This document shows positions 24,985-26,714 of a stretch of 54,237 nucleotides of DNA, in pieces. The translations under genes were made by a program, and so were the position numbers. The stretch is from contig JAKPMS010000010.1 of assembly GCA_029548805.1 (NCBI GenBank), positions 1-54,237 on the forward strand, in the 5' to 3' direction. Source of the DNA: Spirochaetota bacterium. Its GTDB lineage: Bacteria > Spirochaetota > Spirochaetia > Treponematales > UBA12059. The notes under the pieces are model-generated. The model ran no database searches, was not told where the DNA came from, and was given only the letters and a program-made list of their open reading frames with translations. Within the stretch, counting starts at the first letter, position 1. Every line of letters begins with the position of its first letter.

Positions 24985-26714
24985 AAGGCAAAAAACATAA
25001 GCATTTCAGCCAGAACGCTGCCGCTGCCATATTTGTTTTGGCCATGCTGTTTCTGGCCAAAAATACAGCTGCAGCCCTGTCAACCGATCTTGAATCCGTT
25101 GACATAACTGTCAACCTGAGAAAAGACGCCAAGGCAGAAGTTTACTACAGCATCAAATGGCGCACCCTGTCCGGTACCATGAGCGGCTTTTATTTTGAGG
25201 GAGAGGCCTTTAAGCCTGTGTGGAATCCTTCCGCTTGCTACGCTGATCTTGATAATGGCAGTCGTGTTCCGCTTGAAATTATAGAAATGAAAGGCAACAA
25301 CAAGTATGACATAATACTTGCAGGCGGAAAGCGTTTTTCGGGCAGTGCATACTATTTTCTGAATTATGCCGGAGACTTTTCGGAAAACGGGCTGATTGGA
25401 TACACAAAGCACCCCGAGCATGGAGAGTTGGAGTTTTTTGACTGGGCGCCTGTTGAATGGGATGAGGAGCTTGACTACAGGGCTGTGCGCATTGTCTTTC
25501 CAGTAAAAGTATCCGGAGAAGTTTTAAGCAAAGAAGAAAAAGCAAATTTGCCATTGCGCACAGAAGACTGGGTAAACGCAGACAACAAAATTGATTACTA
25601 TGGCTCCCCTGGCAGTGACGGCTATTATTTGACCCTGCTTTTTTACCAGGACAAACCCGCTGCTTATGCCAGCCAAAGACTGCTTTTTTATTTTCCCCGC
25701 GGCTTTTTGGGCTTTGATGCAGAGCTGTATGAATACAGCTTTTCTTATTCCGAAGATGATATTCCTGACGACGAATACTTGGCTAACAATAGCTATTCCA
25801 ACGATTACGATAAAAAACCAGATGTTAAAGCGGCCAGGGCATGGGCAGCAAAACCCGCGGCAGCCTTTGCAGTTTTTACTGCAGTAATTGTCTTTTCCAT
25901 CCTGCTGTATCTCAGGCGTTTCAGACAGCACCAAAAAAACATAGAAGCTGTCAAGGCTATAGCTTGGGCAGGGGATTCCTGGATCCCGCCAAAACTGTAC
26001 ACGGGAAGCTATCAGGTGGAAGGTAAAATAGCAGAAAACCTGCACCCTGTAGAAGCAGCTATACTCCTGGAATTGTCCTTTCCTAGAATTGTTTCCATAA
26101 TGATGGAAGGCTTGAGCGCCCAGGGGATTATTCAAATGGAGCGAGAAGACCCTCTTAAAATTTCCATTGTTTCCGAGAAAAAAGCAGTGGACCCAATGGA
26201 AGAACGGTTTTTGGCCTCTTTCGACTCAAACGGAGAAGTCATGCCGGGCCTCTTGGCAGACTTTTTTGACCAGCTGATAGCTGAGCTGCAGGAAAAAATA
26301 TGGGATTGCGATATAGAAGCCACCAAGGCATATTACAAAAACAAGCTTTTGAGCAGCCGGGAAGAAGCCGAAAAAACCATGAGCATGGAAAACGATGAAC
26401 TTCGGGCTTATTACAGCAGAAACAGAGACCGTATTTACTGGCATAGTTATAATATAATAACGGCCAATCCGCAGCGCTTTGGCGGAATCTCCTTGCCAAA
26501 AGGCATGCAGGGCTCTTTTACCGACTTCATGCGCTCCGCATCCTGTTATTCCGGCTGTTTTTCTCCTGCAAAGGCGGTGTCCACCGTGGATGCTTGCCAC
26601 TCGGCCTGCCATAATGCCTGCCACGATGCTTGCCATTCGGCCTGTCATTCCGCTTGCCACTCGGCCTGCCATTCCGCTTGCCACTCGGCCTGTGTTTCCG
26701 GGAGTTCGCACTGA
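24981..26714 (+). CDS. Bitopic membrane protein with a DUF2207-like ectodomain and a cytoplasmic C-terminal CXXX-repeat (C-H-x-A) tail
   Basis: Signal/anchor at aa 14-33 and a TM at about aa 292-311, followed by RRFRQHQK (positive-inside). The [11 protein letters not shown]...GLSAQGII block resembles DUF2207. The C-terminus reads CYSGCFSP...[40 protein letters not shown]. Confidence 0.75.
   Translation: [577 protein letters not shown]
26595..26702 (+). repeat. Nine tandem 12-nt coding repeats (TGY-CAY-NNN-GCN) with a 24-nt higher-order unit
   Basis: Read directly: units start at 26595, 26607, ... 26691. TGCCACTCGGCC alternates with TGCCATTCCGCT, and the last unit is degenerate (TGTGTTTCCGGG). 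Confidence 0.95.

Follow-up and report, generated by a model that had tools for sequence, protein, structure and literature searches.

The stretch of DNA analysed here, referred to throughout as the window, comprises 54,237 nucleotides (nt) from a Spirochaetota bacterium (assembly GCA_029548805.1, contig JAKPMS010000010.1, positions 1-54,237, forward strand) and contains a cassette of four plus-strand genes (24373-28975), designated A, B, C and D in order. The second of these, gene B (24981..26714), is an open reading frame (ORF) of 577 amino acids (aa) whose product starts with a signal-like segment and continues with a beta-sandwich ectodomain resembling DUF2207 (aa ~34-240), a transmembrane (TM) helix (aa ~292-311), a cytoplasmic domain of winged helix-turn-helix-like and helical character (aa ~350-520) and, at its C-terminus, a Cys/His tail that consists largely of tandem four-residue units. 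The third, gene C (26714..28060), encodes a 448-aa radical S-adenosylmethionine (SAM)/SPASM enzyme, which is the proposed maturase of that tail, while A and D encode additional membrane proteins. An earlier reading of the window, made from its sequence alone and termed here the sequence-only reading, had singled out the tail and offered two accounts of it, as a substrate for crosslinking or as a metal-binding or Fe-S-donating segment.

The last 56 residues of B hold 11 of its 13 cysteines and nine of its 16 histidines, and the tail that they form comprises 11 CXXX units, of which two (CYSG and CFSP; 26544-26567) are separated by an 11-residue spacer from an array of nine contiguous, in-phase units of 12 nt each (26595-26702). 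The array, which is the proposed site of modification, is made up of eight C-H-x-A units, the last five of them CHSA, and a terminal CVSG, and is followed by the C-terminal residues SSH and a TGA stop codon (26703..26714). At the DNA level its units read, in order, TGCCACTCGGCC, TGCCATAATGCC, TGCCACGATGCT, TGCCATTCGGCC, TGTCATTCCGCT, TGCCACTCGGCC, TGCCATTCCGCT, TGCCACTCGGCC and TGTGTTTCCGGG, and Tandem Repeats Finder assigned to them both a 12-nt period (8.2 copies, 70% matches) and a 24-nt period (3.0 copies, 89% matches), so that the 11 units and the 12/24-nt repeats described in the sequence-only reading are real and lie in frame within the ORF. A search of all six frames across the entire window returned this array as the only in-phase run of four or more CXXX units, and its G+C content (0.63) exceeds that of the window (0.45). 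The motif C-Y-S-G-C-F (26544..26561), which precedes the array, is part of a conserved block, Y-x-x-F-M-x-S-x-x-C-[FY]-x-G-C-[FY], that may act as a recognition (‘leader-like’) element for the maturase. The stop codon of B (TGA, 26712-26714) overlaps by one base the ATG of gene C (26714), and a GGGAG Shine-Dalgarno-like motif (26700-26704), found 9 nt 5' of that ATG, is embedded within the final codons of the tail. An antisense ORF (190 aa, 26226-26798, minus strand) and an ORF in a second plus-strand frame (81 aa, 26479-26724) also cross the repeat; both are by-products of GC-rich periodic sequence, and not genes.

The topology of B is that of a single-pass membrane protein, in which the TM helix (25854..25913; aa 292-311) is followed directly by the positively charged sequence RRFRQHQK. 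The assignment draws upon hydropathy and counts of Lys and Arg residues, and upon an AlphaFold2 model (16 sequences, mean predicted local distance difference test score (pLDDT) 74.7) that contains a confident beta-sandwich at residues 34-239, a TM helix at residues 292-325 and a winged-helix-like and helical cytoplasmic domain at approximately residues 350-520, with the tail drawn as a helix (residues 538-571) at a pLDDT of about 35, which is unconfident. Since the N-terminus is signal-like, the TM segment single and the K/R cluster located after it, the tail is placed in the cytoplasm, as had been argued previously from the TM segment and RRFRQHQK; taken together, these features predict a C-terminus inside rather than outside the cell, and the C-terminal 265 residues of B are thus predicted to reside alongside the Fe-S enzyme encoded by gene C. 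The B protein of the window itself matched no family in Pfam or NCBIfam, PF09972 (DUF2207) included even at E<=10, whereas eight of 16 family members did match PF09972 (best E 3.5e-7), and some relatives carry the NCBI name ‘DUF2207 domain-containing protein’. When the model was compared with known structures using Foldseek, the ectodomain was found to resemble ribophorin I/OST1 and the N-domains of M1 aminopeptidases, and the overall layout to resemble that of ribophorin I (a beta-sandwich on the luminal side, a single TM helix and a C-terminus in the cytosol); those matches were confined to ectodomain and layout and gave no clue to the cytoplasmic domain or tail, and a PDB sequence-profile search with the B family returned nothing useful.

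Gene C belongs to the radical SAM/SPASM superfamily, scoring 80.3 bits against PF04055 (cutoff 29.5) and 34.2 bits against PF13186 (cutoff 21.5). Its CX3CX2C cluster motif (27065..27088; C118, C122 and C125) is invariant in two alignments of C relatives (A2 and A6) and lies in the sequence CNNRCRFCYAGC (27065-27100, aa 118-129); a fourth cysteine, C129, located three residues past that motif, is invariant in a 48-sequence alignment and nearly so in one of 30 sequences. The SPASM region (27728..27976), which would bind auxiliary Fe-S clusters, contains the conserved residues C339, C353, C371, C408, C411, C417 and C421, all of which are invariant save C339, which falls just short of invariance in A2 but not in A6. 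The N-terminal domain (26714..27028; aa ~1-105) appears, mainly from its predicted fold, to be a peptide-recognition domain resembling PqqD and the recognition element (RRE) of RiPP systems (RiPPs being peptides made on the ribosome and modified after translation): 15 of 23 such domains matched PF05402 (PqqD) at E<=1 (best 1e-3), which was the only recurrent family, and an AlphaFold2 model of C (48 sequences, pLDDT 81, predicted template modelling score 0.82) displayed a confident alpha-alpha-beta-beta-beta-alpha-alpha fold at residues 3-87. The closest Foldseek neighbours of that model were SkfB (E 4e-16) and the RRE-bearing SuiB (1.5e-14), the latter aligned over 441-463 columns that correspond to the full length of C, followed by BlsE, PqqE, TigE and anSME. 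Gene C is taken, on the strength of these models, to be a peptide maturase composed of RRE, radical SAM and SPASM domains, although the RRE assignment comes mainly from the predicted fold. Public databases name its relatives just ‘radical SAM protein’, and its scores against curated maturases (bits/cutoff) were 53/340 for PapB (NF047865), 82/625 for StsB (NF045574), 56/850 for AlbA (NF012164), 81/381 for PqqE (TIGR02109), 80/265 for MftC (TIGR03962), 63/350 for SbtM (TIGR04082) and 73/400 for the ACGX maturase (TIGR04340). Formylglycine formation of the anSME type, for which the sulfatase motif is C/S-x-P/A-x-R, was set aside because the tail lacks that motif, and a His-Xaa-Ser (Hxs) system was similarly discarded, given a score of 62 bits against a cutoff of 268 for HxsC and a tail unit that is not H-x-S.

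Relatives of B are numerous, with 294 recovered in an exhaustive HMMER scan of 1.84 billion representative proteins and at least 539 genomes found to encode one in a pattern scan of one genome per species. Among the best 80 of those genomes Spirochaetota predominate, including the cultured Rectinema subterraneum, and are accompanied by Myxococcota and by Bradymonadales and Gammaproteobacteria metagenome-assembled genomes (MAGs); most carriers are anaerobes. Spirochaeta dissipatitropha is another carrier in culture. A word-indexed protein search with a family profile returned only 11-13 relatives, the low-complexity tail having probably swamped the word index. The genes surrounding B were counted by tblastn at 82 loci, of which 77 are informative for gene C in that the contig continues (five of the six loci without C end at a contig edge), and gene C was located directly 3' of B in 76 of those 77 (76 of 82 overall). 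This linkage, which spans Spirochaetota, Myxococcota, Gammaproteobacteria and Candidatus Ozemobacteraceae, lends substance to the earlier suggestion that a radical SAM enzyme could gain access to the tail. Homologues of D lie 3' of the radical SAM gene in 70 of the 82 loci and homologues of A directly 5' of B in 56, with A-like ORFs present in most of the Spirochaetota loci that tblastn missed, and the order B-C-D is kept in distant members (Candidatus Ozemobacteraceae and other metagenomes). The junctions are tight as well, in that A and B overlap in the window by 4 nt, B and C by 1 nt, and C and D are separated by 15 nt, while across loci the junctions are mostly -4 or -1 nt, a 4-nt overlap between the end of A and the beginning of B being the usual arrangement.

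Alignment of 78 orthologous arrays, read from species in which the B protein is only ~33-60% identical to that of the window, demonstrated that the tail is conserved in both length and composition. Nine units are present in 71 of the 78, eight in five and ten in two (a range of 8-10), and in the 71 nine-unit arrays each position has its own pattern: unit 1 is C[Y/H/V]SA (Tyr in 47, His in 21 and Val in three), unit 2 is CHNA (70 of 71), unit 3 is CH[D/S]A (Asp in 39, Ser in 30), unit 4 is CH[S/Q/H/D]A, units 5-8 are CHSA, and unit 9 is CVSG in all 71. The Cys, the His and the small Ala are invariant, while the third position accepts any small polar residue; in distant clades CHDA and CHSA alternate over 9-11 units, again with CVSG last in every case. 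The block that precedes the array is kept in nearly all 78 tails, and C522 in at least 90% of the sequences of a further alignment (A1). The tail is thus under strong selection at the protein level, as is evident from the constancy of nine units, from the position-specific residues, and from a sister strain (GCA_054685015.1; radical SAM gene 96% identical) in which the nine units shared with the window differ at nine of 108 nt, all of them third-position and all synonymous.

The sequence-only reading had further proposed that the array grew by duplication of a 24-nt block and could expand or contract by slippage, and analysis of its codons does not support the first of these proposals. The DNA identity of CHSA units within one array (81%) is barely above that of orthologous units between species (78%), which argues against concerted evolution, and adjacent units are less alike (0.779) than they become when the order of the units is shuffled (0.808 +/- 0.004), with none of 2000 shuffles reaching the observed value, although such counts are not strict probabilities given that the arrays are phylogenetically related. 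Identical adjacent units are likewise fewer than expected (13 of 291, as against 21). Concerted evolution and recent duplication are rejected on this basis; the alternation of TCG-GCC and TCC-GCT codons looks instead, because neighbouring units resemble one another less than shuffled ones do, like their diversification, and the tendency of neighbouring CHSA units to use different synonymous codons (26631-26690 in the window, and 80 arrays of loci L001-L088) would fit selection that disfavours exact DNA repeats where the length of the tract has to be preserved. As for slippage, free expansion and contraction are at odds with the prevalence of nine units, and what survives of the proposal is the occurrence of rare changes of one or two units: the sister strain has ten, the extra CNSA being at the 5' end, and a metagenomic protein (P0014) has seven where an otherwise identical genome copy (L067) has nine, which may reflect real variation or assembly collapse. 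The same may be said of several metagenomic B proteins that have 3-5 units or end within the array. The array is, in sum, an old and fixed structure and not a young slippage tract.

Frameshifted or truncated tails were confined to sequences that are visibly full of errors or lie at the end of a contig (L002, P0063, P0095, P0001 and P0004), and not as a general feature of otherwise identical orthologues. At the repeat, or shortly ahead of it, public assemblies are often broken, shortened or frameshifted (P0001 and P0004, whose contigs end inside the array; L002:9280-9300; P0063; P0095), as a result of which many database entries for B are partial, and annotation pipelines under-report the family, many public gene calls being truncated or shortened at the repeat. 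Two variants of B architecture were also observed: P0023 (843 aa) has two tandem ectodomains before the TM helix and an 11-unit tail, while P0032 (540 aa) reads as B up to about residue 420 fused straight to the C-terminal domain of D, without the tail, the radical SAM enzyme or the membrane part of D, and might have arisen either by deletion or as a chimera of the assembly.

The closest known kind of tail is the CXXX-repeat radical SAM target described by NCBIfam TIGR04117 (Syntroph_Cxxx, ‘Cys-Xaa-Xaa-Xaa repeat radical SAM target protein’, a profile of 98 positions), together with TIGR04118 (AC3_0185) and Pfam PF27846 (tSAM_targ_Cxxx_rpt). B shares with TIGR04117 and PF27846 both a C-terminal run of in-phase CXXX units and an adjacent radical SAM/SPASM gene. 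The B tail is not a member of TIGR04117, since its score (13.7 bits against a cutoff of 50; E 0.05, profile positions 62-97) falls short and since that family is described by a small 98-position profile, whereas the repeat examined here ends a 577-aa DUF2207-like membrane protein, has a strict A-C-H-x unit in a number fixed at nine, and belongs to a cassette with two further membrane proteins. A distant family member, P0028, scores 18.7 bits against the same cutoff, and PF27846 has a precomputed match to P0028 and, weakly, to another distant member, P0035. To our knowledge, the chemistry of the known CXXX-repeat families is uncharacterised, and none has a known product. We take TIGR04340, which appears among the matches of gene C, to be the maturase partner of a target with four-residue Ala-Cys-Gly-Xaa (ACGX) tandem repeats; that unit differs from the ACHX found here, and the score of C against it is again far short of the cutoff. 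Literature searches returned no paper on DUF2207, ACGX-repeat or CXXX-repeat proteins with radical SAM enzymes. A CXXX-repeat target of a radical SAM/SPASM enzyme is thus already known as a bioinformatic kind, whereas neither a curated model nor any paper that we could find covers its attachment to a DUF2207-like membrane protein, the strictness of the A-C-H-x unit, the constant unit number, the four-gene cassette or the wide distribution in Spirochaetota.

Additional comparisons can be drawn with other known systems. The ranthipeptides and sactipeptides, a class summarised in PMC11002830, are matured by RRE-bearing radical SAM/SPASM enzymes (PapB for freyrasin, NxxcB, SkfB, CteB and StsB) that install S-C thioethers in Cys-rich and often repetitive cores, and SkfB, a sactipeptide enzyme, is the best structural match to C, while StsB, AlbA and PapB appear among its NCBIfam matches, all far below cutoff. 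Those enzymes act, however, on short peptides made up of a leader and a core, which undergo cleavage and export, whereas the tail of B belongs to a membrane protein and is accompanied by neither protease nor exporter. In that respect the B-C system has more in common with QhpD than with a RiPP that is secreted: QhpD, a radical SAM/SPASM enzyme, installs Cys-to-Asp/Glu thioethers in QhpC of quinohemoprotein amine dehydrogenase, and the modified polypeptide stays within the functional protein (PMC11002830). QhpC differs in that it is a soluble subunit of small size, located in the periplasm and bearing a quinone cofactor and a few specific cross-links, with no tandem CH-x-A repeat and no membrane anchor. 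As for the remainder of B, its beta-sandwich ectodomain and membrane anchor, together with a small membrane protein gene upstream (here gene A), recall DUF2207 proteins of the YciQ/SMU.243 type, just upstream of which is encoded the small membrane protein LemA (PMC12631010) and for which only a stress-tolerance phenotype, in S. mutans, has been recorded (PMC10457818); its cytoplasmic domain and Cys/His tail set the B family apart, and gene A is not recognisably LemA.

On balance, it is somewhat probable that the tail of B provides, in cis, the substrate region for a RiPP-like modification system carried on a protein, in which C is the maturase. The tail is read as a built-in substrate because it is a conserved cytoplasmic repeat, because a conserved block precedes it, and because the maturase that is coupled to it appears to carry a recognition domain. 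According to this proposal, B would present on the cytoplasmic side of the membrane a docking block, eight A-C-[H/Y]-x units and CVSG; C, its translation coupled to that of B, would bind the docking block Y..FM.S..C[FY].GC[FY], acting as a leader, through its PqqD/RRE-like domain, and would then modify the repeat units one by one via abstraction of a hydrogen atom. Radical SAM/SPASM enzymes are known to act upon short tandem motifs, such as ranthipeptide cores in the case of PapB and TVGG repeats in that of TvgB, and thiooxazole formation of the SbtM type is also among their outcomes (PMC11002830). The candidate chemistries for the tail are a Cys thioether, a His-to-Ala cyclophane, a thiooxazole or a combined modification. 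Of these the Cys S-C thioether is slightly favoured, and the modification might then consist of one Cys-centred cross-link per unit (of sactionine or ranthionine type); such thioethers are the commonest outcome for Cys-rich cores. The product would not be released as a peptide and would instead stay upon the membrane protein, as judged from a conserved cassette in which no peptidase or transporter domain was found with Pfam or NCBIfam (an M50B peptidase is encoded upstream in one Ozemobacteraceae locus only). The modified tail might then work alongside A and D in the membrane, plausibly as a module that is rigidified and/or active with metals or in redox chemistry.

Several observations weigh against that proposal. 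The predicted structure of the tail is unconfident, and a thioether leaves the invariant His unexplained, while the invariance of Cys, His and Ala is at least as simply explained by a metal-binding helix. Gene C reaches the cutoff of no NCBIfam family, those of curated maturases included, the best being AhbD (121 of 500 bits) and NirJ2 (112 of 500). The signal for an RRE at the level of sequence is weak, with a best E of 1e-3; the window's own C N-terminal domain has no Pfam match, and a PDB sequence-profile search with it was empty. Finally, the sole informative locus (1 of 77) without an adjacent radical SAM gene, L081:5899-8653 of a Bradymonadales MAG (JBBAEA010000054.1), has a 10-unit tail with D directly after B and no radical SAM gene within 6 kb; a TolB-like gene is found upstream in that locus.

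Of the two accounts offered by the sequence-only reading, that of a crosslinking substrate is the one favoured, with the metal-binding and Fe-S-donating alternatives retained as rivals. The former of these, which is unlikely, holds that the tail is an unmodified metal-binding segment and that the radical SAM enzyme has another substrate or merely a regulatory link to it. In that reading the Cys residues at positions i and i+4 of a helix and the His residues at i+1 and i+5 would build a ladder of soft ligands for Zn, Ni, Cu(I) or Fe, perhaps between two copies of B. The pattern of conservation, with Cys, His and a small Ala held constant and any small polar residue tolerated in the third position, would suit such a helix, as would a unit number fixed by a defined number of metal sites, the helix drawn for residues 538-571 (albeit at low confidence) and the occurrence at L081 of a tail without an adjacent radical SAM gene. 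What a metal ladder leaves unexplained is the near-universal and translationally coupled radical SAM/SPASM enzyme with its RRE-like domain; moreover, both in the pre-array motif and in unit 1, Cys is followed by Tyr, Phe or Val no less frequently than by His, Phe and Val being non-ligands, and the cassette contains no metal transporter or chaperone that Pfam or NCBIfam could recognise.

A second alternative, itself rather doubtful, accepts that C modifies the tail and differs as to the chemistry. Triceptide synthases (three-residue cyclophane-forming enzymes, or 3-CyFEs, such as HaaB, which acts on HAA) cross-link Omega1-X2-X3 motifs, including His-x-Ala, often at several sites per precursor (PMC11499958), and by analogy the His or Tyr ring of each unit might be joined to the C-beta of the Ala two residues further on, creating eight small cyclophane rings. 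The eight [H/Y]-x-A motifs of the tail are consistent with this, as are the replacement of His by Tyr in unit 1 of 47 of the 71 arrays, which keeps the aromaticity, and the character of CVSG, which is both without an aromatic residue and without Ala. HaaB links His-C2 to the C-beta of Ala on HAA, related precursors have several His-x-x motifs (PMC11499958), and SuiB, a C-C cross-linking enzyme, is one of the two closest folds to C. Such a chemistry nevertheless fails to explain the invariance of Cys, which is absent as an invariant residue before each motif in triceptide precursors; it would have the cysteines serve in auxiliary-cluster docking or later metal binding. It is also at variance with the Val found at the second position of unit 1 in three arrays, and no 3-CyFE family appears among the 25 best of the 62 NCBIfam matches of gene C.

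It is very unlikely that the tail, rather than being a substrate, binds Fe-S clusters or passes them on, for instance by serving the radical SAM enzyme or the partners A and D as a scaffold or electron conduit. The 11 cysteines of the last 56 residues, the proximity of an enzyme that requires three Fe-S clusters, and the predominance of anaerobes among the carriers would all be in keeping with such a role; SPASM enzymes have cluster ligands of their own, however, and the RRE-like domain suggests recognition of a peptide. No Fe-S binding pattern known to us combines a strict CxxxC spacing and a His next to the Cys. That the repeat is a contingency tract prone to slippage, or an artefact of assembly, in which the unit number has no specific function, is highly improbable and largely refuted, since the 12/24-nt periodicity, the tenth unit of the sister strain, and the shorter arrays of P0014 (relative to L067, with identical flanks) and of several metagenomic copies are outweighed by 71 of 78 species genomes with exactly nine units and position-specific residues, by codons diversified such that adjacent units are less alike than expected by chance, by sister-strain differences that are synonymous without exception, and by good assemblies that contain no out-of-frame variants.

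Cys-repeat targets of radical SAM/SPASM enzymes have been predicted through comparative genomics, and the B-C system provides an unusually clean test case for such predictions, in that it is present in at least 539 species genomes, has a rigid repeat (eight A-C-H-x units and CVSG) and a maturase with what appears to be its own recognition domain, and presents as its putative substrate a cytoplasmic membrane-protein tail rather than a disposable peptide. Should the tail prove to be modified, RiPP-type chemistry would be seen to reach large membrane proteins and to decorate them permanently, a novel cross-link or metal-binding group might come to light, and a first functional handle would be gained on a branch of the DUF2207 superfamily. 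A more speculative extension, which we regard as unlikely, is that, through the action of C, the eight Cys-His-x-Ala units become a ladder whose rungs are identical groups derived from Cys/His, either cross-linked or heterocyclic (for example thiooxazole-like, S-C-linked, or combined thioether and cyclophane groups), which would form a metal- or redox-active cofactor, bound covalently to the protein and tethered to the membrane, operating with the B ectodomain, A and D in envelope or stress signalling; if true, that ladder would represent a new class of protein-borne, RiPP-type prosthetic group.

Two further genes complete the cassette. Gene A (24373..24984), the first of the four, encodes 203 aa that comprise two TM helices near the N-terminus and a helical domain in the cytoplasm, and has no match in Pfam or NCBIfam. 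Gene D (28076..28975) encodes 299 aa with about four TM helices and a cytoplasmic C-terminal domain, and contains the motifs NKPxDxGxEDWxPV, TPYLRFDKD...IPED and GYHTT; it too matched no Pfam or NCBIfam family, and the RefSeq name of its Rectinema orthologue is ‘hypothetical protein’. All soluble parts of the cassette save the B ectodomain are predicted to be cytoplasmic. An anti-phage defence system was considered and rejected, PADLOC having returned only a generic radical SAM similarity of C to pVip (59 bits) and no match for A, B or D. At the locus in Candidatus Ozemobacteraceae (L084:5253-11609; GCA_964597625.1), a Peptidase_M50B (site-2-protease-like) gene takes the place of A 5' of B, and a weakly FecR-like gene lies 3' of D, neighbours that hint at regulated intramembrane proteolysis or signalling. 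In the window, genes for a DUF5312 protein (570 aa), a Cu-oxidase_4/laccase-domain protein and an OmpA-domain protein (20586-24330) lie upstream of the cassette and are syntenic with it only in the closest relatives (L002:3266-7153; L088:1-2581), while an ATP-binding cassette transporter of sugar type, comprising a solute-binding protein and two permeases, is encoded downstream (29355-32517).

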